Shown here: positions 38,888-58,236 of the stretch, in pieces
Layout: every line of letters starts with the position of its first letter
Position numbering within the stretch: position 1 is the stretch's first letter
Source: Candidatus Omnitrophota bacterium
Lineage (GTDB): Bacteria > Omnitrophota > Gorgyraeia > Gorgyraeales > Gorgyraeaceae
Direction: 5' to 3'
DNA: 64,000 bases
Assembly: GCA_043821705.1 (NCBI GenBank)
Contig: JBDRCN010000035.1
Coordinates: 43,321-107,320 of the forward strand
The notes under the pieces: generated by a model
What the model was told of the DNA's origin: nothing
What the model saw: the letters and a program-made list of their open reading frames with translations, nothing else
Databases searched by the model: none
Program-made: the position numbers and the translations under genes

Positions 38888-39592
38888 TTACATAAGTTTA
38901 GAAAAGCTCGCCAGGCATTTCAATGGATCCTTCTCTCTCAGAAATGCCTCTATCTCTTTTCTTATGCGGCCTTTATTCACTTCACCTACATAACCCTTCA
39001 TGACAGCTTCTTTCATCAAACTTTTAGTCTTATCGTCTATCTTAAAATCAAATCTAGTGGCAAACCTTACAGCCCTAAAGATCCTGGTAGGATCATCTTT
39101 AAAACTATCTTTATGTAAGATCTTTATCTTTTTACCCATAAGATCATTATAACCATTGTAAAAATCTACTAAATTGCCAAATGTCTTTTTATTTAGTGCT
39201 ATTGCCATAGCATTTATTGTAAAATCCCTTCTATAAAGATCTTCTCTTATAGATGCAGGCTTTACTTTAGGATAAGAAGCTATCCTTTCATAGGATTCTT
39301 TTCTCGCAGTAGCAAGATCTATGCTTATTTTTTTTAAAGTAATAGTAGCTGTCTTAAAAGCAGGGTGTTTTTTTACGCTTCCCTTTAACTGAGAATTCAG
39401 TTTTTCAGCAAAAGAAATTGCATCACCCTCTATCACGAAATCCAGGTCATGGTTATCTCTTCCAAGAAATATATCTCTTACAGGCCCTCCTACCAGACAA
39501 ACATCTACACCAATAGAATCTCCTGATCTAGATACAGAATTTAAGATATTTAAAAAACTTTTTGAGACTTTTTTACGTAGATCAATCTTCAT
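38888..39592 (-). CDS. tRNA nucleotidyltransferase / poly(A) polymerase head-domain protein (short; possibly truncated CCA enzyme)
   Basis: 234 aa. Nucleotidyltransferase motif GGPVRD...DLDF and RRDFTINAMA of the PolyA_pol head domain. It is roughly half the length of typical CCA-adding enzymes and ends at the GC-rich block. Confidence 0.6.
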   Translation of the reverse strand: MKIDLRKKVSKSFLNILNSVSRSGDSIGVDVCLVGGPVRDIFLGRDNHDLDFVIEGDAISFAEKLNSQLKGSVKKHPAFKTATITLKKISIDLATARKESYERIASYPKVKPASIREDLYRRDFTINAMAIALNKKTFGNLVDFYNGYNDLMGKKIKILHKDSFKDDPTRIFRAVRFATRFDFKIDDKTKSLMKEAVMKGYVGEVNKGRIRKEIEAFLREKDPLKCLASFSKLM

Positions 39593-40712
39593 TTTCTAAT
39601 ATGAAATCAGCTATCCTTTTCGATGCATCCTTATATGAAAAATGTTCCATCCTGGATCTTATGTGCTGCATCTTTTTAGGAGAGACCAACAGCTCCTTTA
39701 AATAAGTTACTATATCTTTTGGGTGTTCTATCTTTACTGCTACCCCATGCTTAGCAAGTAATTTAGCATTCCTTGTCTCTTGGCCAAAGATAGGATTTAC
39801 TATGACCATGGGCAAATTCTTTGAAAGTGCCTCTGAAATAGTAAGGCCCCCTGATTTGCTTATCAAAAGATCGCTCACCTCCATCAACTCATCAATATTG
39901 TCCATAAAACCAAATACCTTTAAGTTGACATCTGTGGCCCCTTTCTTTTTATTTAGTTTCTCGTAAAGAACCTTATTTTTCCCACATATAACAAGCATCT
40001 GCAATTTATATTTTAGAATACCTTCTATCTTATCTAGGGAATCTATAATATCTTCCACTGGCCCTGCGCCAAACCCCCCTCCCATAATAAGTATATTGAA
40101 AAGATCTTTTTCTATCCCTATCTTTTCTATCAACTGGGTGCGATCTTTAGTAATACTGAATTTAGGGTCACAGGGTATGCCTAATACCTTGATCTTTTCT
40201 TTTTTTATACCGCGTCTTAATAGGTCATTTCTTGTCTCTTCCAGGCATACGATAAAACAGTCAGAATATCTCGCCATCCAAAAACTGTGAGAAATAAAAT
40301 CAGTGACCACTGTATAGAGTTTACCTTTATATCTCTTTTTCTTTTTTAAACGTGACACTACTTCAGCAGGCAAAAAATGAGTACAAAGTATGACATCAGG
40401 TTGTGTCTTATCTATAAGATCGATAAACTTTCTTGCAGTAATAGAATGAACTAACCCTCTTACAGGTGAAACTAATCTATCTACTATCTTTATCTCGAAA
40501 AAATAATATAACAAACCCCATAAAAAAGGTATTTTATTTATTAAAAATAGATAAATGTTAGGATATAAAAACTTAAAGACAGGATTTGTATAATCCAAAA
40601 CATCTACTGTCTTTACTTTAGCATCTTTAAAACCTAATAATGAACTTTCTACAGCTAAAGCTGCTTTTTTATGTCCTATCCCAGCATATGCATGAGCGAT
40701 CAATATATTCAT
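39582..40712 (-). CDS. diacylglycerol glycosyltransferase (MGDG-synthase / UgtP-like, GT28)
   Basis: 376 aa. N-terminal MGDG-synthase-like domain (HAYAGIGHKKAALA) and a C-terminal GT28 C-domain (GGGFGAGP...GQE). Confidence 0.65.
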   Translation of the reverse strand: MNILIAHAYAGIGHKKAALAVESSLLGFKDAKVKTVDVLDYTNPVFKFLYPNIYLFLINKIPFLWGLLYYFFEIKIVDRLVSPVRGLVHSITARKFIDLIDKTQPDVILCTHFLPAEVVSRLKKKKRYKGKLYTVVTDFISHSFWMARYSDCFIVCLEETRNDLLRRGIKKEKIKVLGIPCDPKFSITKDRTQLIEKIGIEKDLFNILIMGGGFGAGPVEDIIDSLDKIEGILKYKLQMLVICGKNKVLYEKLNKKKGATDVNLKVFGFMDNIDELMEVSDLLISKSGGLTISEALSKNLPMVIVNPIFGQETRNAKLLAKHGVAVKIEHPKDIVTYLKELLVSPKKMQHIRSRMEHFSYKDASKRIADFILENED

Positions 40713-40859
40713 ATTAAAATAATGTGTATATAAAAGGTGCTACTGCGCTAGACTGTGTAAAGAATATCAATAATCCGAATAGAAGCAGTACTACTACTAT
40801 GGGTATCATCCACCAAAGCTTCCTCTCCCAGAAAAATGTAAATAATTCCTTAATAATAT

Positions 40860-41405
40860 TTAGTCTTTTCCCAATACCCATTCTACAGCCTCCTTAAGAT
40901 CGTTTTTTATAAGATCGGGCTTTGCTTCCCAATCATCAATGCTCTTTGGATCTTCCTTGCCAGTTAAGAGAAGTATGGTCTTGCAACCTGCGTTCTTGCC
41001 TGCTCCTATATCAAGCCTTGAATCTCCTATAAAATATGTATTTTTAAAGTCTATTTCCATACCCTCTGTTGCTTTTTCTATTAATCCTGTATTGGGTTTT
41101 CTACATGAACAATCTTCATCAGGAAGATGGACGCAATAATTCACTGATTCTATTTTGCCTCCATTTTTTTCTATCTCCTTTAACATGTTGTCTGTTATGT
41201 CTTCCAGATCATCGCTTGTATAAAGCCCCTTACTTACCCCTGCTTGATTCGATATTACAAATATGCTGTAGCCTGCTTTATTCAATCTTTTAATAGCCTC
41301 TATGGAACCAGGAAAAAACTCAAATTCCTTCCATGATTTTATATAATCTCCTTTTCCAGGATCTATATTTATCACTCCATCTCTATCCAGGAATATTGCT
41401 TTCAT
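40860..41405 (-). CDS. gmhB: D-glycero-D-manno-heptose 1,7-bisphosphate phosphatase (HAD)
   Basis: HAD motif I FLDRDGVIN, SNQ motif, the Zn-binding CxH..C.C cluster of GmhB (CVHLPDEDCSCRKP) and GDS. I place the start at the ATG at 41405, preceded by AAGGAG. The ORF track starts it at 41426. Confidence 0.75.
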   Translation of the reverse strand: MKAIFLDRDGVINIDPGKGDYIKSWKEFEFFPGSIEAIKRLNKAGYSIFVISNQAGVSKGLYTSDDLEDITDNMLKEIEKNGGKIESVNYCVHLPDEDCSCRKPNTGLIEKATEGMEIDFKNTYFIGDSRLDIGAGKNAGCKTILLLTGKEDPKSIDDWEAKPDLIKNDLKEAVEWVLGKD

Positions 41406-41421
41406 TCCTTCTCCTTTAATA

Positions 41422-41548
41422 AGCACATCACTTAGCGAATCAAGTAAAGCTAAGTGATAAGTGCGAATTAAATCCCGCCCTTTTTAACTGCTACTATAGC
41501 ATAGTTACTAAAAGGGCGGGATAAAACAATAACCTATAAGTTATGTCC
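41422..41548. repeat. composite hairpin repeat, copy 2 (agcacatcacttagc...gtgcgaattaaatcccgccc...aaaagggcgggat...)
   Basis: Same module order as 12743-12890. It lies between the GT2 gene stop (41534) and the gmhB start. Confidence 0.7.
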
Positions 41549-42301
41549 TTGTTTTATCTCCCAATACTTAGCATAACTAAAAAATTGATACAGCGCTCCA
41601 TTTACTGCAATAATAAAACCTATCACGCCATCTTTATACCCTTTTTTCCTAACATATGCCCTGAAAAACCTGTCAAATGCCTTCCAAAGCATCTTTCCTA
41701 CCCCTATTTTTCTTTTCTCGTTAAACCATTTCTCCGCCTCAAGGCTCGTCTGTTTATTCAAGACATAAAAAAGATTGGAAAAATCTGAATGGCCAAAATG
41801 AACAATGTCCTTTGTAAGATGCCCGCATTTGCCGTCAAGAATTATCTTCGGGTGAACATTCGTTTCTTCATATCTAAACTTTGATTTTTTAAAAAGCCTC
41901 AGCTTACCTGCCGGATACCAGCCGCCGTATCTAACCCAGTAATCACCTATATAAGTCCTTCGGGGGATACTGTAGGCACTAAACTCAGTATCTCGTGATA
42001 TAGTATCCTTTATCTCCTTTTTTAACTCTTCTGTAACTATCTCATCCGCATCAAGGCTCAAGACCCATTCATTTTTTGCTTTCTGGCCCATCCAATTCCT
42101 ATGCACGCCTTCCACCTCCATCTTTCTCTTGAATATCTTATCCGTATATTCTCGTGCAACCTCGATCGTCCTGTCAGTACTGTAATCATCCACTATTATA
42201 TGCTCGTCTGCCCAGTCCTGTGTGCTTTTAAGGCAGCCCTCTATCCTGTGTTCTTCATTATACGCGATCGTAACTACTGATAACGGTAATTTCCCTTCCA
42301 T
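41534..42301 (-). CDS. glycosyltransferase family 2
   Basis: 255 aa. GT-A fold with VVTIAYNEE...DD.STD...DADE (DxD). Confidence 0.7.
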   Translation of the reverse strand: MEGKLPLSVVTIAYNEEHRIEGCLKSTQDWADEHIIVDDYSTDRTIEVAREYTDKIFKRKMEVEGVHRNWMGQKAKNEWVLSLDADEIVTEELKKEIKDTISRDTEFSAYSIPRRTYIGDYWVRYGGWYPAGKLRLFKKSKFRYEETNVHPKIILDGKCGHLTKDIVHFGHSDFSNLFYVLNKQTSLEAEKWFNEKRKIGVGKMLWKAFDRFFRAYVRKKGYKDGVIGFIIAVNGALYQFFSYAKYWEIKQGHNL

Positions 42302-42309
42302 AAAACCCC

Positions 42310-43098
42310 CTATATTTTTTTAACTACGGCTAAAAGCTGATCACCTAGTCCTAAAATATTTCCCAATTGTGCAATAGTAGCCATGGTATTTTTGTGAAAA
42401 GATTTTGAAAAAGGGTAATACTGGCTATTTTGGATTATCTCTTTAATTTTAAAACCATTATTAGATAATAAATTTCCAAAACTTCCCCTATCAAAATGCC
42501 ATACATGTTCTCCATTGCCCCATCCATACCATCTGGCCTTATATAGTCTTGCCACCAGGCTATTATGATTTGGCACTCCTATCACTACTATACCTTTTTC
42601 TGCAACAAAATCCTTTATATCTTCTATAAATCCATTCAACTCGACAATATGCTCTAGCACATGGTTCAATATAATAACATCAAAAGATTCTCCAGGGTTC
42701 AAGACATCTTTAAGCATGCCACTTTTTACAGTTAAGCCTTTTGATAAACATATCTCTGATGCTTTTTTATTGAGCTCTATACCTTCTGCTTTGAAACCCA
42801 GCCTTTTAGCCTCTTCAAGCAAAAGTCCAATACTACAGCCAACATCCAAAAGCCTGCCTTCTTTTTTGTGTTTAACTACTAAATTCATAATATCTTCGGA
42901 AAACATCTTAAATTTATCTTCATTTTTCAAATAATGTTCACAATAAAGGCCTTGATCAGTATAATCTGTAAGAAGATAAGGCCTGCTTCTAAATGTCTTA
43001 CAACTATTGCACATGACTATCTCTTTTTTCTGATCATGAAAATCAAGATATTTTTTATAGCTATGAGAACTACATATATTACATCTATCCTGATTCAT
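42310..43098 (-). CDS. class I SAM-dependent methyltransferase with an N-terminal Cys4 zinc ribbon
   Basis: 262 aa. CNICSS...CNSC ribbon, SAM motif I LLDVGCSIGLL and a post-I acidic residue. Confidence 0.7.
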   Translation of the reverse strand: MNQDRCNICSSHSYKKYLDFHDQKKEIVMCNSCKTFRSRPYLLTDYTDQGLYCEHYLKNEDKFKMFSEDIMNLVVKHKKEGRLLDVGCSIGLLLEEAKRLGFKAEGIELNKKASEICLSKGLTVKSGMLKDVLNPGESFDVIILNHVLEHIVELNGFIEDIKDFVAEKGIVVIGVPNHNSLVARLYKARWYGWGNGEHVWHFDRGSFGNLLSNNGFKIKEIIQNSQYYPFSKSFHKNTMATIAQLGNILGLGDQLLAVVKKI

Positions 43099-43868
43099 AT
43101 TTTACCCTTATGATATCTTCCGTAATAGACTCCCCATATAGCAAAGTGCCTCCAGGCATTCAGTATTGAAAAAATAAATCCATGCATGCCATCCCTAAAG
43201 CCCTGTTTTCTTATATATAATTTAAAGAATAATTTCAATGGCCTAAAATAAAGATGGTATTTTATTTCTTTCAGGGTGATCTTGTCCCCTCTATCCTCAT
43301 GCATAACCCTTGCTTCAATGCCAGCGTAGTAAAGCTGCCTATCGATGAATTGTGCTATAGAATCAAATGCAAAATGGTCTAGATCTCCTTTTAAGTCCCC
43401 TATGGAACCATTCACACCCAATGTCTCATGCACATTATGCCCCACATAGCGTGCTTTATCTTTTCTAAATAAGCGTACATGTCTTTCGTGCCAGCCACCG
43501 TACTTCATGAACTTTTTTAAAAAATAATTTTTTCTTCCTATTCTATAAGCTGAGAAATGATTGCTATCTTTCAAAGAGCTCTTTATCTCGTTCCTTAATT
43601 CAGGCGTCACTCTCTCATCTGCATCAAGCTGCAATACCCATTCGCTATTTGAATTATCTATACCGACATTCCGCTGCATATCATGGTTACCATTTGAAGC
43701 GTGAGCTACAAGATTTGCTTTAAATCTGCGGCAGATCTGATGAGTATTATCTACACTCATATCATCCACCACTACTATCTCATCACACCATTTAACGCTC
43801 TCAAGGCACGGCGCGATACGCTTTTCTTCATTCTTTGCTATTATAACTGCTGTTATCTTATGTTTCAT
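43095..43868 (-). CDS. glycosyltransferase family 2
   Basis: 257 aa. ITAVIIAKNEE...VVDD.S.D...LDADE. Confidence 0.7.
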   Translation of the reverse strand: MKHKITAVIIAKNEEKRIAPCLESVKWCDEIVVVDDMSVDNTHQICRRFKANLVAHASNGNHDMQRNVGIDNSNSEWVLQLDADERVTPELRNEIKSSLKDSNHFSAYRIGRKNYFLKKFMKYGGWHERHVRLFRKDKARYVGHNVHETLGVNGSIGDLKGDLDHFAFDSIAQFIDRQLYYAGIEARVMHEDRGDKITLKEIKYHLYFRPLKLFFKLYIRKQGFRDGMHGFIFSILNAWRHFAIWGVYYGRYHKGKI

Positions 43869-43869
43869 A

Positions 43870-44574
43870 CTATATATCCTTAGGGTCTATCTTTAGGCCA
43901 AATCTATAATTAAATATACATTTTAGATAAGCTATCCCGCTTCGAAGTTTTTGTAGTTTTACTTCTCCTATTCTTATCTTGTAAGGTATATCTATTTCTT
44001 TATGTTTAAATTTTCCTAGATTAGTCCTGACAATTATCTCGCAAGGCAAAGAATAATTAGTCTCCCAGTTTATAGATTCTTTTAAGTTCTTTCTTATACA
44101 AAACATCCCTGTTGAAACATCATGTACGTTTATTCCATATAACAACCTCACTAAAAATGCAAATCCCATATTTGCCAATCTATTCATAAAAGGCATCTCT
44201 TTCTTAAGCTCTTTGTTTAACCTATTGCAAGATACTAGATCATATTCCCCAGAAAGTTCTACAAGCTTTGGGATAAAACTCATAGGATAAGTGTTGTCGC
44301 AGTCTGCTGTTATTATAATATCATTTTTCGCTTCTTTTATAGCAGTCCTGAGTGCAATGCCATGGCCTTGAGGTTTTTGGGCCAATACCTTGACTCCCAT
44401 ACGTTTAGCGATATCTACAGTAGAATCAGAACTAGAATCAACTATAACTATCTCTGTCTCATATCCTTTTGTGTATGTTCTGATATCCTCTATAACCTTA
44501 CCAATAGCCTTTTCCTCATTAAATGTCGGCATAACCACAGATACCTTGATATTTTTATCCATTATCTTCTCCAT
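43870..44574 (-). CDS. polyprenol-phosphate glycosyltransferase (Dpm1/ArnC/GtrB-like GT2, soluble form)
   Basis: 234 aa. VSVVMPTFNEE...VIVDSSSDST...ITADCDNTYP, which is the Dpm1-like signature. Confidence 0.65.
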   Translation of the reverse strand: MEKIMDKNIKVSVVMPTFNEEKAIGKVIEDIRTYTKGYETEIVIVDSSSDSTVDIAKRMGVKVLAQKPQGHGIALRTAIKEAKNDIIITADCDNTYPMSFIPKLVELSGEYDLVSCNRLNKELKKEMPFMNRLANMGFAFLVRLLYGINVHDVSTGMFCIRKNLKESINWETNYSLPCEIIVRTNLGKFKHKEIDIPYKIRIGEVKLQKLRSGIAYLKCIFNYRFGLKIDPKDI

Positions 44575-45850
44575 TAAGTTTTCTAGCTAGATCATAGCTA
44601 TGTTCGATTATCTTATCCATATTAAGATATTCAAATTCTGCGAACCTACCGCAGGAATATATCCCCATATTTAATACGTAGTCCAGGGCTTTGTCAATAT
44701 TATTCCTATGACCTAAGTCGTATATGACATAGGCGTATCTAAAGCTCTTGATATCTACAGAAGTAATATCATTTCTTGAGACAAGGCCATTCTTTTCCAG
44801 ATCAGTTATGACCTTTTCTCTTATCTCCTTTTTACTTAAGCTCGCCAAAGGACTATCCTGCCTGTAAGTTATCTCTATCAAAAGGGTAGAAACATTATCT
44901 TCTCCGCAATAATTTTCCCCCAAGAAATTAAGCTTACTTAAACGATGGAATATCATATTCTTATCAGCAAATGTAACTGCAAAATTATCCCCAATATTGT
45001 CCTTCTTGGCCTGAAGCGCTACTATGTATATTGAATTATACTTAAGATCCCCCAGGCTGGCCATAACATCTTTTGGTGCATCTAAAAATCTAAAAAGCTC
45101 ATGGATAGGCATGCAATTTATCAAGGCATCTCCCTTAAAACTACCCTTATCTGTTTCCACCACCCACTTGTCTTTCTTTTTAGATATACTGGTTATCTTG
45201 GTAGAAGTCATAACCTTAGCTTTATCCTTTATACGTTCTCTGTATCCTGAGATCAAACTTTGTATCCCGTTGGACTTCGGATAATAAAAATATAATTGAT
45301 GAAGATATCCCTCTGTCTGTATACCTTTTGAGGACTTTATAATATCTTCTTTGGGAGGTTTTGGTATCCTCTCTACCATCTGCATGTCCATAAAACTGGG
45401 GTCAAACTTCCATATCTTTTCATTATATGGCTCTAGGTATAATCTAGTAATGCCTTCCCCAAATGTCTTTAAAAAAAACTGAAGCATATTCTGTGGCGTG
45501 GAATTCTCATGAGGATTATTCAAAAATTCCTTAACACAATAATCCCTGTCAGTATCATCTAATGCTGCTAGATCATTTTCAAAAGGATACTTTACAAATC
45601 TATCTTTATGAAAGATCTTATTTGACCTCTTTATCTTATTTGTCTCTGTCAATAAAGTAAGTTCATTAAGCATATCTTTATTTTTTGAGAATAATATATG
45701 CGGCCCAATATCATAATAGATGCCATTTAACTCAAAACTTCTACACAACCCTCCTAAGACATTTTCTTTTTCTAGCACAAGGGTCCTTTTATTTAAAAAA
45801 TGCGCTAGGCTGAGTCCTGCCAGCCCTCCACCTAAGATTATATATTCCAT
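44555..45850 (-). CDS. FAD-dependent oxidoreductase, UDP-galactopyranose-mutase-like
   Basis: 431 aa. N-terminal dinucleotide motif ILGGGLAGLSLA, IGPHILF, and C-terminal CGRFAEFEYLNMD resembling the Glf GRxxxYxYxxMD motif. It is longer than typical Glf. Confidence 0.45.
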   Translation of the reverse strand: MEYIILGGGLAGLSLAHFLNKRTLVLEKENVLGGLCRSFELNGIYYDIGPHILFSKNKDMLNELTLLTETNKIKRSNKIFHKDRFVKYPFENDLAALDDTDRDYCVKEFLNNPHENSTPQNMLQFFLKTFGEGITRLYLEPYNEKIWKFDPSFMDMQMVERIPKPPKEDIIKSSKGIQTEGYLHQLYFYYPKSNGIQSLISGYRERIKDKAKVMTSTKITSISKKKDKWVVETDKGSFKGDALINCMPIHELFRFLDAPKDVMASLGDLKYNSIYIVALQAKKDNIGDNFAVTFADKNMIFHRLSKLNFLGENYCGEDNVSTLLIEITYRQDSPLASLSKKEIREKVITDLEKNGLVSRNDITSVDIKSFRYAYVIYDLGHRNNIDKALDYVLNMGIYSCGRFAEFEYLNMDKIIEHSYDLARKLNGEDNG

Positions 45851-45864
45851 AAAGTATCTCTCTC

Positions 45865-49003: not shown

Positions 49004-49008
49004 CTACG

Positions 49009-50627: not shown

Positions 50628-50643
50628 ACCTTGCCTCCTAATT

Positions 50644-51213: not shown

Positions 51214-51215
51214 AC

Positions 51216-52196: not shown

Positions 52197-52882
52197 GCAA
52201 GCACCTCCTCAATATCCTTTATCCCTTCTAGGGTGCCAATATCATAAAATCTCTTAGAGACAACATATCCAGCGAGTTGCCTTTTTTGTATCAAAGAAGG
52301 GTATATTTCTTCCTCTAGTGAAACTTGTCTATCGCCTGGTATCAGATCTAGCACTTTTTTATTAAATATTGCCACACCCGCATCTATATGATCCATGCCA
52401 TGCTCTGAAACCTTGCTATAACCAGTTATCATATTTTTCTCATTAAGCTGGATATTATTCTTCAAAATATTAATTTGATTATCATAAGAGACTATTGTAC
52501 CTAGATAATCATTGTTCAAAGAAAATTCCACCAATCCATGATAATCTATATCCAGATATGAATCGCCATTTAAAAAAAGGAATTTATCAGTAATAAGCTT
52601 CTTTGCATTCTTTAGCGCTCCGCCTGTCCCTAGAAAATCTTTTTCTATCGAATATTCAATATTAACATCAAATTCTGAACCATCTCTGAAATAATCCATG
52701 ATGACTTCTTTTAGATAACAGCAGCAAATAACAAAACTAGTGATCTTATAGGATCTTAATAGGTTTATCTGGTATTCTAGAAAGGGTTTATCCAATATCT
52801 TCACCATAGCCTTAGGAATATTATTAGTGATAGGGCGGAGTCTTGTACCTTTTCCACCTGCAAGTATAACAGCTTTGATCAT
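52193..52882 (-). CDS. hddC: D-glycero-alpha-D-manno-heptose 1-phosphate guanylyltransferase
   Basis: 229 aa. Sugar nucleotidyltransferase motif ILAGGKGTRLRPIT. Confidence 0.7.
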   Translation of the reverse strand: MIKAVILAGGKGTRLRPITNNIPKAMVKILDKPFLEYQINLLRSYKITSFVICCCYLKEVIMDYFRDGSEFDVNIEYSIEKDFLGTGGALKNAKKLITDKFLFLNGDSYLDIDYHGLVEFSLNNDYLGTIVSYDNQINILKNNIQLNEKNMITGYSKVSEHGMDHIDAGVAIFNKKVLDLIPGDRQVSLEEEIYPSLIQKRQLAGYVVSKRFYDIGTLEGIKDIEEVLA

Positions 52883-52895
52883 TTTCAGTTTCTTT

Positions 52896-53939
52896 CTACT
52901 TTTCCAAGAGCTTTAGTTCAGCTTTATGTATCTTCTTAAACATTTCGAATCTGCCTAATAGTGATTTGCTGTTTACATTTATAGAATCGTACTTTTTCTT
53001 CTTTGTAAGTACCTTGAACATCAAAAACACATTAAAAAAAGAGTCCTCATAAAAGATCTTTCTGATATTCCCGTGATTCAGGTCTTTTATCTCTTCTATG
53101 TCGCTCTTTTTCATCATAACATCTATCCAGTTGCCAGCATCAGCAAATGAATACATATTCTCTTTTATCATCTGAAACCCTTCATTCTTGGCATCCTTTA
53201 TCACATAAAGCATCCTTTTCGGCTTTCTATACAACTTATAGAATTTTTCCTTGCTTTCATTAAAAAGTTTTTCAAAGTGTTCCTTCTTTTCTCTGCCTTT
53301 GAAAGAAGCGTGTTCTTCATGGTACACATAGGATCCCAAGGCCATCACTGATTTATATCCTTTTTGTTTGGCCCTCATTGAATATTCAGTGTCTTCAAAA
53401 TATCCTGGCGAGAACCTCTCGTCCCAGACCCCTATCTCATTTATAAGTTTACGCTTTACTAGATAGCAAAACCCTACTGCTGTACCTATCTCGACGAACT
53501 TGCCGGAATTTTCCCTCACGAGCCTTCCAGTAAAATCCTCCAAGGACTCCATCTTCTTTTTTCTTAGCCCAAAAGTATTACTCGAAGGATTTACTATACC
53601 TATATCATCTGAAGCCTCAGCTACCTTTACCATCTCGACTAACCAGTCTTTGCACACAATAGTATCATTATCCAATATACACACATACTCTGCATCTCCG
53701 TAAGTCATGCCCTGGACACCCGCAGTAGTATTCCCCAAGTTTTCCTTATTGACTATTAATTTTATTCTATCAGGGTTATCGCTGGCTGTTTTCTCAAGAT
53801 ATTTTCTGGTATCATCTTTGCTCGCATTATCTATCAATAAAACAGTGTAGGGGAATATAGTGTTGGATAAGATATGATCCACGCATCTTTTCGTAAGTTG
53901 TTTTTTATTCCAGACAGGTATTACTATATCACACTTCAT
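52896..53939 (-). CDS. glycosyltransferase family 2
   Basis: 347 aa. CDIVIPVWN...LLIDNASKDDT...LDNDT (DxD). Confidence 0.7.
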   Translation of the reverse strand: MKCDIVIPVWNKKQLTKRCVDHILSNTIFPYTVLLIDNASKDDTRKYLEKTASDNPDRIKLIVNKENLGNTTAGVQGMTYGDAEYVCILDNDTIVCKDWLVEMVKVAEASDDIGIVNPSSNTFGLRKKKMESLEDFTGRLVRENSGKFVEIGTAVGFCYLVKRKLINEIGVWDERFSPGYFEDTEYSMRAKQKGYKSVMALGSYVYHEEHASFKGREKKEHFEKLFNESKEKFYKLYRKPKRMLYVIKDAKNEGFQMIKENMYSFADAGNWIDVMMKKSDIEEIKDLNHGNIRKIFYEDSFFNVFLMFKVLTKKKKYDSINVNSKSLLGRFEMFKKIHKAELKLLEK

Positions 53940-53940
53940 G

Positions 53941-55035
53941 TCACCATCCGCTCTTTATGGTCTTTATAACTTTTTCTACATCATTATCTGTAAGGTTATA
54001 GTGTAGTGGGATAGAGACATATTCTGGTTCTACTTCATTCATGACCTCTAATTCCTCTAGTCTCTTACCCCCAAAGATAGGATATATATCGCATCTTACA
54101 TGTACCATATGAGATTCAATATCATTGGCTAAAAGTTTTTTCATAAAACCTTTCCTATCCTTGACCCTCATAGTAAACAGCCAATTACCACTTACCCTAT
54201 CATCCTTTTTAGAAAGTAATGTAAGGCCTTCGACACCTTTTAACCCATCTCTATATCTATCAGATATCTCTCTACGCTTTTTTAAAACTTTCTTCAGATC
54301 GTCGAGCTGATCTACGATCATGCTGGCAGCAATATCATTCATGTGATATTTATAACCTACTTCTTTTATCTGGTATTTCCAATATATATCTCCACGGAAC
54401 TCCCTGTCTATGCCATACCACCTTAAAAGTTTAGCTCTTTTATATTGATCCTGTTTTAAGACTGTCAAAAGGCCTCCATCCCCGGAAGTGATCTGTTTTA
54501 TGGCCTGGAAAGAAAAACAAGTAAAATCTCCAATGCTACCGATATTTTTCCCTTTATAAGTCGCCCCAAAAGCATGAGCAGCATCCTCTATCACCGGAAC
54601 ATTATGTTCCTTGCCTATCTTCAGTATCTCGTCCATATCGCATGGATAACCTGCCCAATGGACAACAAGTATGGCCTTTGTCCTGTCCGTTATCTTCTTT
54701 TTTATGCTTTCCGGGTCTATGTTCAATGTATCTCTCTGGATATCCGCAAACACTGTTTTAGCGCCAGTGTAAAGTATGGGTATATTAGTAGCGGAACATG
54801 TCATAGGAGTGGTCACGACTTCGTTATCACTTTTTACTCCTGACATGATCAAAGCAAGATGTATGGCAGAAGTACATGAATTCACAGTGACTGGATAAGC
54901 AAACCCCAGCATCTTCTTAAACTTTCTTTCAGCTTCTTCTACTTTAGGCCCTTGCCCGATCCATCTGGTCTTTAAAACTTCTTTTAGATTATCATATACC
55001 TTCTCTGACATATACGGCCAAAACATATTGATCAT
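53941..55035 (-). CDS. DegT/DnrJ/EryC1/StrS-family sugar aminotransferase (PLP)
   Basis: 364 aa. Fold-type I aminotransferase with the PLP-lysine region FSFQAIKQI. Confidence 0.85.
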   Translation of the reverse strand: MINMFWPYMSEKVYDNLKEVLKTRWIGQGPKVEEAERKFKKMLGFAYPVTVNSCTSAIHLALIMSGVKSDNEVVTTPMTCSATNIPILYTGAKTVFADIQRDTLNIDPESIKKKITDRTKAILVVHWAGYPCDMDEILKIGKEHNVPVIEDAAHAFGATYKGKNIGSIGDFTCFSFQAIKQITSGDGGLLTVLKQDQYKRAKLLRWYGIDREFRGDIYWKYQIKEVGYKYHMNDIAASMIVDQLDDLKKVLKKRREISDRYRDGLKGVEGLTLLSKKDDRVSGNWLFTMRVKDRKGFMKKLLANDIESHMVHVRCDIYPIFGGKRLEELEVMNEVEPEYVSIPLHYNLTDNDVEKVIKTIKSGW

Positions 55036-55913
55036 AGTTCCATCTCCTCTCTTAATAATTTTAAACCTTCATTACAAGTATGCACAGGAACATCCAGCTC
55101 TTTCTTTATTTTTTCTACACACAGGCCTGCCTTTTTAGGCCTTTTTGCTTTAAGCTTTAGGTCCTTTAGGCTGACCTTTTCTATCAAATCCTTATTTAAG
55201 TTGAATATATTTGCTATTTTCTCTATGAATTCCACTCTATTTATAAAATCAGTCCCTGCTACATGATAGGTCCCATTTTTTCTAGACTCAATAAGCTTAA
55301 TAATAGCTAAAGAAAGATCTCCCACATAAGTAGGCGTACAATAAAAATCCTCTGCTGCATATACTTTCTTATTGCTGCGCATATTATTTATGATCTTTAA
55401 TGAAAAATTCACTCCATTTTTTTCTTTCCCAAAAAGTTGAGCTGTTCTAATGATCAAATAATCGTTAAGCCTCTTTTTTATCTCGTTTTCGACTTTTAGT
55501 TTAGTCATACCATAGATATTAAGAGGAGATGGTATGTCCTCTTCTCTATAAGGCCCTTTTTTTCCATCAAATACATAATCAGTTGAAAGAAATACTATTT
55601 TTTTATTCCGTTCCTTTATCTTTTTTATTAATTCAATTGATCCTTCCACATTTATATCTTCTGCTAGATCTTTCTCTGATTCACATAAGTCTACATTAGT
55701 AACACCGCCTGACAATATCGCTATATCTGGATCAAAAGAATCTATGGTTTTTTCTATACCTTCCCTGTCCCTTAGGTCAAGATATGTCATGCCTTCCTCT
55801 GGCGCAGGCTCACAGTATGTGCCTAGCGCTTTCCATCCTTGATTTTTTAGATCTATATATAACCTGCTTCCTAGAACACCTGTTGCTCCAACTAGCAAAA
55901 CTTTCATAAGCAT
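55032..55913 (-). CDS. SDR-family sugar-nucleotide reductase (RmlD / dTDP-4-dehydrorhamnose reductase-like)
   Basis: 293 aa. [12 protein letters not shown] Rossmann motif, YGMTK (YxxxK), and RmlD-like length. Confidence 0.7.
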
Positions 55914-57007
55914 TCCCCTAGACTGTCTACTATATATTTGATCTCTTCTTCTTTGAGCTCAGGGTACATCGGAAGGCTAAGGACTTCTTCGCAACACTTT
56001 TCTGATATTGGGAAGTCTCCCTTTTTATGGCCTAGCTCTTTATACGCTTCCTGCAGATGGACAGGTATTGGGTAATGGATTATAGTAGGTATGTCCTTGC
56101 TAGTCAAATACTCTATTACCTTTGATCTATTTTTTATCCTCACAACATATTGGTGATATATATGCTTTGCATATTCTGCTTCATATGGCAATACTATATC
56201 AATACCTCTTTTTTTAAATAAATCAGTGTATATAGATGCATTCTTTCTTCTTTTTTCATTCCATTCGTCTAGATATCTTAATTTTACCCTAAGTACTGCA
56301 GCTTGTATTGTATCCAACCTGGAGTTATACCCTTTTATAATATTTTCATATCTGTCTTTTCTTCCATAATCACGTAGAAGTAATAGTCTTTTTTTCATCT
56401 CTTCTGACCTTGTAAGTGCCATGCCTCCATCACCAAAAGCCCCAAGGTTCTTTGTAGGATAAAACGAAAAACAGCCAATATCCCCTATGCTTCCTGCTTT
56501 TTTATTTTTATAGAGCGACCCATGTGCTTGAGCAGCGTCTTCTATGACCTTTAAGTTGTGCTCTCTAGCGATCTCCATGATAGGGTCCATGTCAGCAGCA
56601 TGGCCATAAAGATGTACTGGCAGTATTGCCTTTGTCTTTTTAGTGATAGCTTTTTTTATCTTAACTGGGTCTATGTTATATATCTTCTTGTCTATGTCTA
56701 CAAACACGGGCTTAGCCCCTGTCATTGATATAGCTAATGCTGTCGCGATGTATGTATAACTCATAGTGATAACTTCATCGCCTTTCCCTATCCCGCAAGC
56801 AAGGCATGCTAAAAATAATGCATCTGTCCCAGAATTTAGTCCTATGCCATAATCTGTATTACAGTATCTTGCAAACTCTTCTTCAAAAAGAATCACATCT
56901 TTACCCAGAATAAATCCACACGAATTTAAAACATTCTCTAGAGGGGCCTTTAACTCATCTTTAATAGATTCATATTGCCTCTTGAGTGTAAAAAAATCTA
57001 TCTTCAT
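55904..57007 (-). CDS. DegT/DnrJ/EryC1/StrS-family sugar aminotransferase (PLP)
   Basis: 367 aa. PLP-lysine FSFYPTKNL. It is a paralog of 53941..55035. Confidence 0.85.
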
Positions 57008-57016
57008 CTCTTCCCC

Positions 57017-58093
57017 CTATTCGATCATATGTAAAACTTTATCAAAAACATCGTCTACGCTCAATGTTTCCAAACATCTTTTATGGCTGCATTCTGGGAC
57101 CTTGAACCTCTTATAACAAGGCCTGCAATCCACTTCTTTAGTAACACTGATATTAGCTAGGCCAGAAGGATAAGCACCATATACTGATTCATCAACTGGC
57201 CCGAATATTGATACAGTCTTAATACCTTGGCTAGAAGCAATATGTAGCGGCCCTCCTTCACTACAGATAAATAATTTTAATCTCTTGCAAAGCTCTGCCA
57301 TCTGCCTTACTGTAGTCCTAGGAGCGATCAGCGTTTTTCTCTCCATGCTATTTTTAATATCTTCTACAAGCCCTTCTTCCCCTGGCCCCCAGATAAAAAC
57401 AACTTTTGCATTAAATTTCTCTATGAGTTTATCAGCTAATAGACTAAATTTATCAGCTGGCCATCTTCTCATACCTCCTTTTTCCTTGCCGAAACTCACT
57501 CCTCCGCCTGGAGCTATGCCTATCAAAACATCTTCATGTCCTATACCTGAAGTCTTTAAAAAACTATCTATATATTCTTTGTCTTCCTTTAAAGTGATAA
57601 GAGTTGTTTTAATGCCTTTAAATCTAGAAAGGTCTATCCTTGAGCATATAAGATCCAGATAATATTCAGCTACTGGCTTGTCATTAAATCCAAAAAATGG
57701 AGTCTTCCCTGTTAAGAATCTCCCTCTTCCTTTATAGTTAAATCCTATTCTTTCTTTAATGCCTATAAGCCAAGAGAGAAATGCATATTCCTTACCAAGA
57801 GAAAGATCTACCACTATGTCGATATTCCTTTTTTTTATCTTCATCCAGAAATCAATTATTTTTCTTAAGGAACCTACCTTATCCCTTTTCCAAAGTGCCC
57901 TATACTCACCCCTGTCAAATACAAATACCTCATCTATGTCAGTATTTGTCTCTAAGATCTCTTTAGTCCTTATATTACATATATAAGCTATATAGCTCTT
58001 TGAGTCAGCCTTTTTCAATACTGAGACTAAAGGCGTAGAAAACAGAACATCCCCAATACCAAATGGATTGATTATAAGTATCCTTTTACCCAT
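57017..58093 (-). CDS. glycosyltransferase family 9 (heptosyltransferase, WaaC/WaaF-like)
   Basis: 358 aa. KRILIINPFGIGDVLFSTP at the N-terminus and the GT9 C-terminal domain (GGPLHIASSQG). Confidence 0.8.
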   Translation of the reverse strand: MGKRILIINPFGIGDVLFSTPLVSVLKKADSKSYIAYICNIRTKEILETNTDIDEVFVFDRGEYRALWKRDKVGSLRKIIDFWMKIKKRNIDIVVDLSLGKEYAFLSWLIGIKERIGFNYKGRGRFLTGKTPFFGFNDKPVAEYYLDLICSRIDLSRFKGIKTTLITLKEDKEYIDSFLKTSGIGHEDVLIGIAPGGGVSFGKEKGGMRRWPADKFSLLADKLIEKFNAKVVFIWGPGEEGLVEDIKNSMERKTLIAPRTTVRQMAELCKRLKLFICSEGGPLHIASSQGIKTVSIFGPVDESVYGAYPSGLANISVTKEVDCRPCYKRFKVPECSHKRCLETLSVDDVFDKVLHMIE

Positions 58094-58148: not shown

Positions 58149-58236
58149 ACAGCGGGTCCTGTCCGAGATTCACCCCACAAGTGCTCGCCAAACGCTGCGC
58201 GCTTGCGGGGAACCCCAATCTCGGCCACCCGTTTCG
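58149..58236. repeat. GC-rich ~100-nt hairpin repeat, copy B
   Basis: gacagcgggtcctgtccgagattcaccccacaagtgctcgcc...ctgcgcgcttgcggggaaccccaatctcggccacccg. It is inverted relative to copy C at 60453-60543, which lies on the other side of the 58609..60384 gene. Confidence 0.8.

Follow-up and report, generated by a model that had tools for sequence, protein, structure and literature searches.

A stretch of 19 genes in an Omnitrophota genome is best read as an envelope-glycan operon whose conserved, self-contained core module would supply a modified heptose, linked to a lipid phosphate, for glycosylation on the outward-facing side of the inner membrane; we assign this reading a probability of roughly 0.55. 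The genes occupy positions 39582-58093 of the window (the whole 64,000-nt stretch of DNA that was analysed), where 19 intact open reading frames lie on the minus strand, each with a significant family match in a profile search (Table 1). The intergenic spacing is −20 to +16 nt across the 17 genes from the GT9 gene to the last GT2 gene, and gmhB is set off by a 107-nt gap upstream. Since the GT28 gene has a 147-nt gap upstream and overlaps the downstream tRNA-nucleotidyltransferase-like (CCA-like) gene by 11 nt, it is probably part of the downstream unit and outside the operon, and it showed no association with the cassette described below or with the GT-C family in other loci. The block is flanked by housekeeping genes, with SMC, GGDEF, and DUF1570 on one side and CCA-like, RbfA, DHH, TruB, RibF, and dcw genes on the other. 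The first-pass annotation had tentatively read the locus as a periplasmic glycan modification or protein O-glycosylation system, and its gene families, HddA route, GT-C, soluble GT2, common orientation, and tight packing were all recovered, while its ArnA/ArnB logic, its emphasis on the GT9, and its inclusion of the diacylglycerol glycosyltransferase were not.

Table 1. Genes of the locus in order of transcription (positions in the window)
Position	Strand	Product	Supporting match
57017-58093	-	GT9-family glycosyltransferase, 358 aa, first gene of the operon	PF01075 E 1.8e-23
55904-57007	-	DegT sugar aminotransferase, C3-aminotransferase type (DegT1)	PF01041 E 1e-123
55032-55913	-	RmlD-like NDP-4-keto-sugar reductase (SDR)	PF04321 E 2e-61; TIGR01214 201.6 bits, just below the cut-off of 224
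53941-55035	-	DegT sugar aminotransferase, C4-aminotransferase type	PF01041 E 2.8e-100
52896-53939	-	GT2 glycosyltransferase, 347 aa, no predicted TM segment	PF00535 E 7e-24
52193-52882	-	HddC-like sugar-1-phosphate nucleotidyltransferase	PF00483 (NTP_transferase)
51216-52196	-	HddA-type GHMP kinase, heptose-7-phosphate 1-kinase	GHMP N and C domains; best NCBIfam match HddA
50644-51213	-	GmhA-like sedoheptulose-7-phosphate isomerase	SIS_2; top four NCBIfam matches all GmhA, 118 bits
49686-50627	-	NDP-sugar 4-epimerase-type SDR, GDP-sugar 4-epimerase subgroup	PDB 3ehe, 8rdg
49009-49695	-	Class I SAM methyltransferase, 228 aa	Methyltransf_23/11/12
47255-49003	-	582-aa protein with CgeB-like glycosyltransferase C-terminus	PF13524 (Glyco_trans_1_2), residues 462-568, E 8.5e-21
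45865-47271	-	GT-C (ArnT-like fold) membrane glycosyltransferase, 468 aa	PF13231 (PMT_2); Foldseek ArnT
44555-45850	-	Eukaryote-type UDP-galactopyranose-mutase (UGM)-like flavoenzyme, 431 aa	Amino_oxidase/GLF; PDB 4dsg
43870-44574	-	Dpm1/DPM-synthase-like GT2, 234 aa, no TM	NCBIfam dolichyl-phosphate hexose transferase 198 bits (whole profile), AglJ 106 bits
43095-43868	-	Small GT2, 257 aa, paralog of 41534-42301	PF00535 E 2e-17
42310-43098	-	SAM methyltransferase, N-terminal CxxC...CxxC zinc-ribbon-like motif	Methyltransf_23 E 3.6e-24; CNICSS...CNSCKTF
41534-42301	-	Small GT2, 255 aa, paralog of 43095-43868, closes the tightly packed block	PF00535 E 6e-18
40860-41426	-	GmhB heptose-1,7-bisphosphate 7-phosphatase (HAD-IIIA)	NF006506 184.8 bits (cut-off 178); NF050049 131.9 bits
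39582-40712	-	GT28/MGDG-synthase-like diacylglycerol glycosyltransferase	PF06925 and PF04101; diglucosyl-DAG synthase 214 bits, below cut-off

In the pathway that we infer, GmhA, HddA, HddC, and GmhB would most likely supply a GDP-activated seven-carbon sugar, the GalE-type SDR would invert C4 of the GDP-heptose, and the UGM-like flavoenzyme may contract the pyranose ring to a furanose. The Dpm1-like GT2 would transfer the sugar to polyprenyl phosphate and, after flipping, the GT-C would pass it to an acceptor outside the cytoplasm. The GT9, the three further GT2 proteins, the CgeB-like glycosyltransferase, the two methyltransferases, the C3- and C4-aminotransferases, and the RmlD-like reductase would build and decorate the acceptor glycan; that the two aminotransferases and this reductase have no defined step in the pathway counts against the reading. 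Genes for an initiating phosphoglycosyltransferase, Wzx/Wzy, an ABC exporter, or a ligase are missing from the locus, so the acceptor is most likely the LPS core or a different glycan whose synthesis begins elsewhere. There is no flippase gene in the locus, and a GtrA-type flippase is absent from the window.

The heptose genes follow the GHMP-kinase (HddA) route rather than the PfkB/HldE route, with the kinase matching the heptose kinases 3k85 (1e-41) and WcbL (4usk) in the PDB. The GmhA-like protein carries the GNGGSASTASHF motif. GmhB alone exceeds its NCBIfam equivalog cut-off, the HddA, HddC, and GmhA proteins each remaining below theirs. The nucleotidyltransferase is probably a guanylyltransferase, judging from its NCBIfam scores of 138 bits for Man-1-P GTase and 123 bits for HddC, each under the cut-off, and from its PDB match to HddC of Y. 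pseudotuberculosis (5xhw, 2.7e-26); its best PDB match is annotated as a UTP-glucose-1-P uridylyltransferase. In other loci this protein is fused to a GmhB-type HAD domain, and the window GmhB is homologous to the HAD half of such fusions in cassette loci. The SDR encoded beside gmhA, which had been considered ArnA-like, is instead related to GDP-sugar 4-epimerases, with PDB matches to GalE-1 of A. fulgidus (3ehe, 2e-103) and to PhGal4E_1 of P. horikoshii (8rdg, 5e-95), an enzyme that prefers GDP-sugars. Its SSSSTVFG and YGASK motifs are present, and a motif check of the sequence found no TDE dehydratase motif. Three independent pointers, namely the HddC/ManC-like enzyme, the PhGal4E_1-like SDR, and the GT2, which is closest to the GDP-mannose-using DPM synthase, indicate GDP as the likely nucleotide.

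The eight core genes are found again, arranged as a compact cassette, both in other bacteria and in MAGs that are labelled archaeal. The fullest case (L171) is a single co-directional run on an independent contig, comprising GT-C (39% identical), GtrA, flavoenzyme (57%), GT2 (71%), SDR (45%), HddC/GmhB, HddA (45%), and GmhA (46%), without DegT or GT9. The flavoenzyme, SDR, HddC-GmhB fusion, HddA, and GmhA are consecutive in three other loci (L088, L089, L090), the first two of which also contain the Dpm1-like GT2 and the second also GtrA, and in L095 the cassette is adjoined by two PMT_2 GT-Cs. Among 45 metagenome loci no shorter than 8 kb around flavoenzyme homologs, strong homologs within 6 kb of the flavoenzyme were found for the SDR in 27, HddA in 26, HddC/GmhB in 26, and GmhA in 19. 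A strong Dpm1-like GT2 was present in only six of the 45 loci and a GT-C of the window family in none; therefore, most genomes probably use the NDP-heptose directly through cytoplasmic glycosyltransferases. Judged by equal "longest contig" values in two match tables, 21 of the best 120 flavoenzyme matches apparently share a contig with the best 120 Dpm1-like GT2 matches. GT9 relatives near the cassette are rare and only 22-27% identical to the window GT9. The heptose genes are thus tied to the 4-epimerase-like SDR, the flavoenzyme, and, in the subclade of this flavoenzyme, the Dpm1-like GT2, not to the GT9, whose apparent conflict with a GDP-heptose route, pointed out in the first-pass annotation, is not central to the locus. 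The searchable literature yielded neither a described member of the cassette nor a description of this gene arrangement, in line with the first-pass annotation. Homologs of the 228-aa methyltransferase (73-99 bits) occur near the cassette in a few loci, and the two small GT2 proteins are 35% identical to each other. The CgeB-like gene shares 17 nt with the GT-C gene, and its position next to the GT-C is not conserved in that family; beyond the C-terminal PF13524 domain, its product gave no domain match even at E ≤ 1 across the N-terminal 460 aa.

The soluble GT2 matches the P. furiosus DPMS (5mlz, 1.2e-17) and ArnC (6.5e-8) in the PDB. Its gene has 20 nt in common with the flavoenzyme gene, its homologs (55-71% identical) adjoin the flavoenzyme family in other loci, and we propose it as a candidate polyprenyl-phosphate heptosyltransferase. 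The GT-C has about nine or more TM helices and a small C-terminal soluble domain of about 100 aa, and, across 99% of its length, matches a protein from a Candidatus Omnitrophota MAG at NCBI with 100% identity. Its AF2 model (pLDDT 94) gave ArnT as the best Foldseek match (5f15, TM 0.70), followed by STT3/PglB/Pmt4/ALG/Aft, which identifies it as neither an unrelated transporter nor an O-antigen ligase. D43-E44-x-E46 in loop 1, R142-P143-D144, and Q185 are invariant in the family, and K186 is nearly so. A UGM-like gene lies within 10 kb of the GT-C in 53 of 80 genomes of this family from many phyla, and directly adjacent in 34. In 30 of the 31 such neighbours checked the tested mutase residues are kept with occasional substitutions; for most GT-C homologs, the neighbouring mutase-like gene is only a distant paralog (30-126 bits) of the gene for the window flavoenzyme.

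The locus could alternatively be an ordinary LPS core or outer-core operon, in which the GT9 and cytoplasmic GT2 proteins consume the NDP-heptose, while the Dpm1-like GT2 and the GT-C form a separate ArnC/ArnT-type module adding a DegT-made amino sugar to lipid A or core. We regard this as unlikely, although the GT9 belongs to the LPS heptosyltransferase family, the locus encodes two DegT aminotransferases as well as an SDR reductase, and the ArnT and ArnC matches agree with it, as do the missing initiating transferase, flippase, polymerase, and ligase genes, the common direct use of NDP-heptose, and the lack of the Dpm1-like GT2 in most flavoenzyme/heptose loci. The GT9, however, scores far below every WaaC/WaaF/WaaQ equivalog cut-off in NCBIfam, and its sole PDB sequence match is a Veillonella protein deposited as "Glycosyl transferase family 9" (3tov). 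DegT1 is a C3-type enzyme (QdtB, 3frk, E 1.3e-123, then DesV, WlaRG, and WbpE); the second DegT matches AtmS13 (4zwv, 1.7e-68), CalS13, and ArnB (2e-52), and neither comes near the ArnB cut-off (214 and 237 bits versus 631). The locus pairs one QdtB-like C3-aminotransferase with one C4 type and has no ArnA-type formyltransferase/decarboxylase, ArnD, or ArnE/F, and an ArnA/ArnB-like logic is not supported. Moreover, the close GT2 homologs adjoin the heptose-linked flavoenzyme, the L171 cassette joins the two to GtrA and a GT-C homolog in the absence of DegT and GT9, and the GT-C family has members in Saccharibacteria, Falkowbacteria, and Moranbacteria, which are not known to have LPS.

PMT-type protein O-glycosylation, in which the GT-C would glycosylate Ser/Thr residues on secreted or surface proteins with the lipid-linked heptose, instead of LPS or another glycan, appears quite improbable. 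In its favour, the Pfam family of the GT-C is PMT_2, Pmt4 is among the structural matches, an OST3/OST6-thioredoxin-like gene occurs in the context of L005, and the GT-C family, having members in CPR bacteria and Dependentiae, is not tied to LPS. Nevertheless, ArnT is a better structural match than Pmt4 (TM 0.70 versus 0.56), the GT-C has no MIR or other peptide-binding domain and a C-terminal soluble domain of only about 100 aa, and the operon encodes five further cytoplasmic glycosyltransferases typical of glycan assembly; this explanation differs from our preferred reading solely in the acceptor, which cannot be read from sequence.

The flavoenzyme matches the T. cruzi UGM along its full length (4dsg, E 1e-25) in the PDB sequence search, and its AF2 model (pLDDT 90) matches TcUGM in Foldseek (TM 0.88, E 1e-31). 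H51, R161, R303, Y374, R402, and Y408, which correspond to AfUGM H63, R182, R327, Y419, R447, and Y453, are invariant in 30 homologs, as are the His loop and every Arg/Tyr residue that binds the diphosphate. The sugar-contacting positions differ from UGM, the sites matching AfUGM N207, W315, and Y317 (numbered by counting along the alignment) not being conserved. It is still less probable that the protein is an FAD-dependent NDP-sugar oxidase providing a keto-heptose to the C3/C4 aminotransferases for a methylated, transferred amino-heptose, as its amine-oxidase/PPO-type fold, its divergent sugar contacts, the DegT genes beside it in L093 and L116, and the two DegT and keto-reductase-like RmlD genes of an operon with no dehydratase to supply a keto group might suggest, because UGMs rank above oxidases in sequence and structure searches (E 1e-31 versus 1e-25; TM 0.88), the His loop, all four diphosphate-binding residues, and R402 are invariant, and only 2 of 45 loci have DegT genes near the flavoenzyme versus 27 with the 4-epimerase-type SDR.

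Since the subfamilies of the flavoenzyme, the GT2, and the GT-C have no characterised member, every substrate given here is a prediction, as are the GDP nucleotide, the inversion at C4, the furanose product, the lipid carrier, and the acceptor. The gene content, folds, conserved catalytic residues, gene packing, and linkage across genomes are what the analysis shows. C. jejuni HS:10 and HS:41 offer a precedent, having both heptofuranoses and predicted GDP-heptopyranose mutases, and on the basis of its residues and modelled fold we propose the flavoenzyme of the lipid-linked heptose module as a putative NDP-heptose pyranose/furanose mutase. The 4-epimerase SDR and the flavoenzyme would then form the GDP-heptose counterpart of the GalE and Glf pair.

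The heptose/mutase/GT-C module of this locus is real and widespread. It lies in a block of 19 consecutive open reading frames, all on the minus strand, whose coordinates are collected in the table. The genes followed each other with spacings of -20 to +16 nt across 17 genes, from the GT9 gene to the last GT2 gene, after which gmhB came at a gap of 107 nt and a GT28/MGDG-synthase-like gene at a gap of 147 nt. Since this GT28 gene was preceded by the 147-nt gap and overlapped the next gene, a tRNA-nucleotidyltransferase-like (CCA-like) gene, by 11 nt, it probably belongs to the following housekeeping unit. The boundaries drawn in the first-pass annotation were right overall, with the exception of this last gene. 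Significant Pfam matches were obtained for all 19 ORFs and agreed with the families named in that annotation, and NCBIfam models refined the assignments.

Positions in the window of the genes and sequence elements of the glycan locus and its borders
Feature	Position	Strand	Remark
Glycan locus	39582-58093	-	19 genes
GT9	57017-58093	-	first in transcription order
DegT1	55904-57007	-	aminotransferase
RmlD-like reductase	55032-55913	-	
DegT2	53941-55035	-	aminotransferase
HddC-like nucleotidyltransferase	52193-52882	-	
HddA-type GHMP kinase	51216-52196	-	
GmhA-like SIS protein	50644-51213	-	
SDR	49686-50627	-	
582-aa protein	47255-49003	-	
GT-C	45865-47271	-	
UGM-like flavoenzyme	44555-45850	-	
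Dpm1-like small GT2	43870-44574	-	
GT2	41534-42301	-	end of the tightly spaced genes
GmhB	40860-41426	-	
tRNA-nucleotidyltransferase-like gene	38888-39592	-	234 aa only, PolyA_pol head domain
Gap after the CCA-like gene	38580-38887		308 nt
GC-rich hairpin element, first copy	38547-38619	+	intergenic; three copies, ~75-85 nt, 84-85% identical
GC-rich hairpin element, second copy	58159-58231	+	intergenic
GC-rich hairpin element, third copy	60450-60523	-	intergenic
TG-extended -10 sequence	58135-58106		from the promoter scan
GGDEF gene	60582-61721	+	

The kinase contained both the N- and C-terminal GHMP domains, its top NCBIfam match was HddA (153.6 bits, cut-off 600), and its best PDB matches were the heptose kinases 3k85 (E 1e-41) and WcbL (4usk). 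Pfam, NCBIfam, and PDB searches thus upheld the earlier proposal of a GDP-heptose-type kinase, placing the protein in the GHMP family with HddA and not with the PfkB-type HldE/HldA. The four best NCBIfam matches of the SIS protein, which carries the GNGGSASTASHF motif, were all GmhA (118 bits, cut-off 209), while GmhB scored 184.8 bits with NF006506, above the curated cut-off of 178; GmhA-like and GmhB proteins both co-occurred with HddA in the cassette loci. The nucleotidyltransferase remained below the equivalog cut-offs with HddC (122.8 bits, cut-off 300), mannose-1-phosphate guanylyltransferase (138 bits), and MurU (121 bits). Its single best PDB match was a UTP-glucose-1-phosphate uridylyltransferase, with Yersinia HddC (5xhw) close behind (E 2.7e-26). 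The nucleotide is probably GDP, which is favored by three independent sequence affinities, namely the HddC/ManC-like transferase, the PhGal4E_1-like SDR, and the GDP-mannose-type GT2.

In the PDB sequence search, the SDR matched Archaeoglobus fulgidus "GalE-1" (3ehe, E 2e-103) and, over its full length, Pyrococcus horikoshii PhGal4E_1 (8rdg/8rdh; 322 bits, E 5e-95). Its sequence contained the motifs SSSSTVFG and YGASK, and the dehydratase Thr-Asp-Glu signature was absent from it. An ArnA-like identity was ruled out by these matches of the GDP-sugar 4-epimerase type. PhGal4E_1 is the founding member of the GDP-sugar 4-epimerase subgroup and a promiscuous enzyme that prefers GDP-sugars; the paper describing it names no natural substrate and never mentions heptose (PMC12171764). 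Unlike PhGal4E_1, its homolog in the window is embedded in a heptose pathway.

The flavoenzyme matched the UDP-galactopyranose mutase (UGM) of Trypanosoma cruzi over its full length in the PDB sequence search (4dsg, E 1e-25), followed by the UGM of Aspergillus fumigatus (AfUGM), and bacterial UGMs aligned with it in the N-terminal FAD-binding part only. PDB entry 7XPT, an "NDP-pyranose mutase", was discarded as a comparison, being an unrelated Mn-dependent GT75 enzyme. The AlphaFold (AF2) model of the flavoenzyme (pLDDT 90) had the three-domain fold of UGM, and Foldseek ranked T. cruzi UGM first (TM 0.88, E 1e-31), with protoporphyrinogen oxidases behind (1e-25). Residues H51, R161, R303, Y374, R402, and Y408 aligned with AfUGM H63, R182, R327, Y419, R447, and Y453, and these His, Arg, and Tyr residues were invariant in 30 homologs. 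The PYNxKxW segment was kept as well, with one Y/H variant at the PYN tyrosine among the 30 homologs. The histidine loop of AfUGM and its Arg and Tyr residues binding the NDP diphosphate were matched, the loop reading G-P-H and not G-G-H; an invariant Glu stood where AfUGM has Q107, and several sugar-pocket positions were unlike UGM. With the UGM fold and the catalytic residues kept but the Q107 position and the sugar pocket changed, alignment and model fit a pyranose/furanose mutase that acts on an NDP-sugar other than UDP-galactose. Among the homologs listed, the best 120 were all 56-66% identical to the flavoenzyme, and eukaryote-type UGM homologs in prokaryotes formed 441 clusters at 50% identity (E<=1e-30).

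A rival reading, in which the flavoenzyme is an oxidase supplying transamination instead of a mutase, stays alive because neither the aminotransferase pair nor the RmlD-like reductase has an explained role in the locus. DegT1 was of the sugar C3-aminotransferase type, matching QdtB (E 1.3e-123) and then DesV, WlaRG, and WbpE, and DegT2 was of the C4 type, with AtmS13, CalS13, and ArnB as its matches. With the ArnB model, the two proteins scored 214 and 237 bits (cut-off 631), and the Pfam search of the locus detected neither a formyltransferase nor a deformylase nor EamA-type genes. The Arn-like amino-sugar logic suggested previously did not hold, as ArnA, ArnD, and ArnE/F were missing and DegT1 was QdtB-like.

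The small GT2 matched the dolichyl-phosphate hexose transferase model NF041391 at 197.8 bits (cut-off 375) over profile positions 1-207 of 213, AglJ at 106 bits, and the dolichyl-phosphate mannose (DPM) synthase of Pyrococcus furiosus at E 1.2e-17. Its sequence contained the D-C-D motif of the GT-A type, nearest to polyprenyl-phosphate transferases. The protein has 234 aa and no hydrophobic segment, so that the C-terminal transmembrane (TM) anchor of bacterial and archaeal members is missing, in agreement with the soluble Dpm1/ArnC-like GT2 described in the first-pass annotation. The eukaryotic DPM1 type is soluble, and the small GT2 resembles it in lacking a TM anchor. More than one TM segment was predicted in the GT-C alone among the products of the locus. 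A small paralogous GT2 pair of the locus shared 35% identity.

The GT-C had no PDB sequence match at E<=1, and an AF2 model was obtained from 41 homologs with a pLDDT of 94 and a pTM of 0.92. Compared with ArnT, PMT, and PglB, the model showed the polytopic GT-C fold that had been expected, and Foldseek placed ArnT (5f15/5ezm, TM 0.70) first, followed by STT3, PglB, AglB, Pmt4, ALG9/12, and mycobacterial AftA/AftB/Emb, with a probability of 1.00 for ArnT, STT3, PglB, AglB, Pmt4, ALG9/12, and AftA/B. ArnT proper was rejected as its identity, since NCBIfam returned no ArnT match (only Agl23, 18.6 bits) and PDB no sequence match. Residues D43, E44, and E46, directly after TM1 in the first extracytoplasmic loop, were invariant in the 41 sequences; therefore, the DE motif in loop 1 had been recognized correctly. 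R142-P143-D144 and Q185 were also invariant, and K186 nearly so. A relative of the GT-C was encoded in 310 stretches of GTDB species-representative genomes, covering Omnitrophota, Planctomycetota, Bacteroidota, Desulfobacterota, cyanobacteria, Dependentiae, and CPR bacteria (Saccharibacteria, Falkowbacteria, Moranbacteria), with Reichenbachiella faecimaris DSM 26133 (Bacteroidota) as a cultured carrier. Since CPR bacteria to our knowledge lack LPS, the family as a whole is not lipid-A-specific. The flavoenzyme, small-GT2, and GT-C subfamilies are all without a characterized member.

A UGM-like gene lay within 10 kb of a GT-C family gene in 53 of 80 loci and was directly adjacent in 34 of the 80, mostly upstream and co-directional. 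The mutases near most GT-C homologs were longer paralogs of the window flavoenzyme, not orthologs (~440-540 aa, 30-126 bits), and nearly all of the 31 GT-C-linked paralogs examined retained the His, Arg, and Tyr residues of the mutase. The GT-C family also occurred with another module, consisting of an SDR, an NTP-transferase, a GHMP kinase, the GT-C, and a GT2 (comparison locus L087), and two PMT_2 GT-Cs stood beside the cassette in L095. In the Candidatus Falkowbacteria loci L001/L011 (2517-20750), three GT-C genes of the family stood amid five genes of the sulfatase family; the stretch also encoded a UGM-like flavoenzyme, a small GT2, a carbamoyltransferase, and a QueC-like protein. Such a pairing of GT-Cs and sulfatase/phosphodiesterase-like enzymes, seen here in a CPR genome, is unusual.

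The flavoenzyme itself was linked to the heptose genes. A common row of flavoenzyme, epimerase-type SDR, HddC-GmhB (NTP-transferase/HAD) fusion, GHMP kinase, and SIS isomerase was present in L088, assigned to an "uncultured archaeon", and in the metagenome assemblies L089 and L090 (ENA, one also NCBI); the small GT2 was also present in L088 and L089, with GtrA upstream in L089. We surveyed 45 additional metagenome loci, each 8 kb or longer, for strong homologs no farther than 6 kb from the flavoenzyme; because many contigs are truncated, the counts are lower bounds: 27 loci for the SDR, 26 each for HddA and HddC/GmhB, 19 for GmhA, 6 for the Dpm1-like small GT2, and 2 for DegT. The position of the SDR homologs in heptose pathways in those 27 loci suggests that the physiological substrate in the GDP-sugar 4-epimerase subgroup is GDP-heptose. 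The small-GT2 family was tight (53-71% identical), and when tables of best matches were compared, 21 of its best 120 relatives shared their "longest contig" value with the best 120 flavoenzyme matches. This reciprocal test agrees with the flavoenzyme linkage. Most heptose/flavoenzyme loci probably feed cytoplasmic glycosyltransferases directly, with the Dpm1-like GT2 confined to a subclade.

The most complete arrangement was found in the 541-kb contig ctg13428l of ENA ERZ21878193 (L171), where eight co-directional genes spaced -14 to +74 nt apart form a cassette. It encodes a GT-C (39% identical to the window protein), GtrA, flavoenzyme (57%), small GT2 (71%), SDR (45%), an HddC/GmhB fusion, HddA (45%), and GmhA (46%). 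Within L171 1-20669, the cassette was flanked by Transposase_20 upstream and by Y2_Tnp, a DruA/Tn5-like gene, and IS66 downstream, and it adjoined a NeuB/Epimerase_2/CTP_transf_3 nonulosonic-acid set. The transposase-family genes and the nonulosonic-acid set alongside suggest that the cassette is mobile. A variant without the GHMP kinase and GmhA was present in GCA_016782615.1 (L172), labelled Nanoarchaeota archaeon, with two GT9 genes, three radical-SAM genes, and a split HldE-like pair (PfkB and CTP_transf_like) adjoining a GT2, an SDR, an NTP/HAD/PRK fusion, and the flavoenzyme. This arrangement indicates that the flavoenzyme/GT2 pair may also run on a PfkB-type heptose kinase. Human gut contigs (L106-L109, L113) encoded flavoenzyme homologs with 53% identity, with genes for HddA, GmhA, HddC/GmhB, and SDR homologs 2-8 kb away; the heptose/mutase module is therefore not confined to environmental lineages.

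The most far-reaching reading, to which we assign a probability of about one in three, is that the GT-C belongs to a widespread family of extracytoplasmic furanosyltransferases, carried by at least 310 species-level genomes and fed by UGM-like mutases, and that its donor here and in the L171-type cassette is polyprenyl-phosphate heptofuranose. All chemical steps of the pathway that we propose for the locus are ones that we infer. The SDR would invert C4 of the NDP-heptose, the flavoenzyme would contract the ring to the furanose, and the DPM-synthase-like GT2 would make polyprenyl-phosphate-heptose. The lipid-linked sugar would then be flipped, a flippase gene not being found in the locus, and transferred by the ArnT-fold GT-C, while the other glycosyltransferases, the methyltransferases, and the aminotransferases probably assemble or further decorate the acceptor. 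Archaeal heptoses with inverted C4 exist, as in the D-glycero-D-galacto-heptose of the Thermoplasma N-glycan.

Pfam and NCBIfam found no initiating phosphoglycosyltransferase, Wzx/Wzy, ABC exporter, or ligase among the 19 products. Because initiation and export genes are missing and a GT9 is present, the LPS core is favored as the acceptor, and a protein or another polymer may take its place. The 582-aa protein encoded upstream of the GT-C gene is not a conserved GT-C partner: a relaxed Pfam search found a C-terminal CgeB-like domain alone, and the protein had no similarity to the neighboring methyltransferase. That the GT9 consumes the heptose is neither supported nor excluded. Its assignment to the GT9 family stood (PF01075, 83.6 bits), but it did not score as a WaaC/F-type heptosyltransferase equivalog, the protein being divergent and far under the cut-offs of all WaaC/WaaF/WaaQ models (TIGR02195, 88.8 against 134.6; TIGR02201, 85.8 against 170; TIGR02193, 50 against 185). 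Its sole PDB match was 3tov, a Veillonella protein deposited as "Glycosyl transferase family 9". A GT9 match of any strength was present in just 1 of the 45 flavoenzyme loci, and the GT9s near other cassettes (L172, L025) were just 22-27% identical to it. An autonomous O-antigen or capsule locus was ruled out by the absence of initiation, Wzx/Wzy, export, and ligase families.

Judged by analogy, the locus with its proposed polyprenyl-phosphate heptofuranose donor would functionally resemble the lipid-A and core decoration systems ArnC/ArnT, Rgt, Flm, and Lgm. In the ArnC/ArnT system for lipid A L-Ara4N, a GT2 on the cytoplasmic side loads the sugar onto undecaprenyl phosphate, from which a periplasmically acting GT-C of the ArnT fold transfers it; ArnT was the best structural match of the GT-C, and ArnC was a PDB match of the small GT2. 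Relatives of this system are Rhizobium RgtE/RgtA-D, Francisella FlmF/FlmK, and Bordetella LgmA/LgmB. In contrast to ArnC/ArnT, the window has no ArnA, ArnD, or ArnE/F, its GT2 lacks TM segments and is nearer to DPM synthase, its sugar supply combines a heptose pathway with an epimerase and a mutase, and its GT-C family also occurs in lineages without LPS. The mycobacterial decaprenyl-phospho-arabinofuranose/Emb-Aft pathway likewise provides a lipid-phosphate furanose donor for GT-Cs outside the cytoplasm. Its gene order of the GtrA-like Rv3789, DprE1, DprE2, and AftA recalls the GtrA-like, flavoenzyme, and GT-C neighborhood of L171 and L003, and AftA, AftB, and Emb were among the structural matches of the GT-C. 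However, DprE1 has another flavoprotein fold and takes part in oxidation/reduction on the lipid-linked sugar, whereas the window flavoenzyme is UGM-like with its NDP-diphosphate-binding residues kept, and the sugar of the window would be a heptose made from sedoheptulose-7-phosphate. Unlike the three-component Gtr-type system (GtrA, a GtrB GT2, and a GT-C), the window has no GtrA: tblastn with the L171 protein gave only a 35-aa match inside the SMC gene, and L003 as well as the homologous cassettes L171 and L089 encode GtrA.

GalE plus Glf also combines a 4-epimerase-type SDR with a subsequent UGM-fold flavoenzyme that has the same catalytic His, Arg, and Tyr, but in the window the nucleotide is probably GDP, the sugar would be a heptose, an invariant Glu occupies the Q107 position, and the sugar-pocket residues differ. 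Heptofuranoses occur in the HS:10 and HS:41 capsules of Campylobacter jejuni, and the GDP-heptopyranose mutases predicted for them were uncharacterized as of 2023 (PMC10680097). These GDP-heptose pathways share SDR modification with the window and have predicted flavin mutases, HS10.16/HS41.15, that would convert GDP-6-deoxy-heptopyranose to GDP-heptofuranose (PMC10680097). In contrast, capsule glycosyltransferases of the cytoplasm use their products, a Dpm1-like GT2 and a GT-C being absent, and the route involves 4,6-dehydration and C4 reduction, whereas the window SDR is of the 4-epimerase type without a dehydratase motif; the window mutase is of the eukaryote-like UGM type, HS10.16/HS41.15 being compared by description.

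The locus was bordered upstream by housekeeping genes (SMC, a GGDEF protein, and a DUF1570-like protein) and downstream by the CCA-like gene, RbfA, a DHH protein, TruB, RibF, and then the dcw cluster. Its G+C content of 0.345-0.372 was slightly lower than that of the flanks (0.385-0.40). The strand bias was extreme, the GGDEF gene being the sole real-looking plus-strand gene in or flanking the locus, and GC skew was below zero in all 2-kb steps of window 1-64000 (-0.09 to -0.31). Scans for promoter-like and terminator-like sites gave no excess over shuffled sequence (68 against 76 +/- 11 and 10 against 8.7); a TG-extended -10 sequence from the promoter scan, as a whole no better than shuffled sequence, lay before the GT9 gene. 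The Rfam scan of the window returned one tRNA only, with no match in the operon leader.

The core of the hairpin element, GATTCACCCCNNAAGTGCTC, had 3 matches against 0.02 expected, and RNAalifold predicted a 26-pair hairpin with one compensatory pair. The element had no Rfam match, and no copy was present in the 172 comparison loci. Each copy lay ~60-80 nt 5' of a start codon and was oriented the same way relative to it; the genes concerned are the GT9 gene, the GGDEF gene, and probably rbfA. The two direct copies bracket the glycan locus and the CCA-like gene. A REP-like repeat, a regulatory or leader hairpin, and the boundary of an island are possible identities of the element. The best NCBIfam match of the CCA-like gene, an 880-aa A-adding enzyme model, covered profile positions 457-683 only, and the gap after the gene held no ORF longer than 41 aa and part of one hairpin copy. 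The gene may encode a truncated or stand-alone head-domain protein.

In the literature searched, neither a heptose nor galactofuranose or another UGM-derived furanose was described as a lipid-linked donor, and no mutase/GT-C pairing was found, an absence that is weak evidence because many subscription papers lay outside the search. If the pathway model fails, the locus is a well-annotated, ordinary LPS-type glycan operon. If it is true, we know of no earlier lipid-linked heptose donor or heptofuranosyl GT-C. Systems that combine a lipid-phosphate sugar with a GT-C, such as ArnT, Emb/Aft, and PMT, shape antibiotic resistance, cell-wall assembly, and surface recognition. The L171 set would then be a portable eight-gene cassette that is directly testable in a heterologous host, and a function would be assigned to the 441 clusters of eukaryote-type UGM homologs that make up a large prokaryotic clade. 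The GDP-sugar 4-epimerase subgroup of PhGal4E_1 would gain GDP-heptose as a physiological substrate, a candidate natural substrate for enzymes studied in biotechnology, and there would be a functional handle on a GT-C family of many poorly known phyla, including the CPR.
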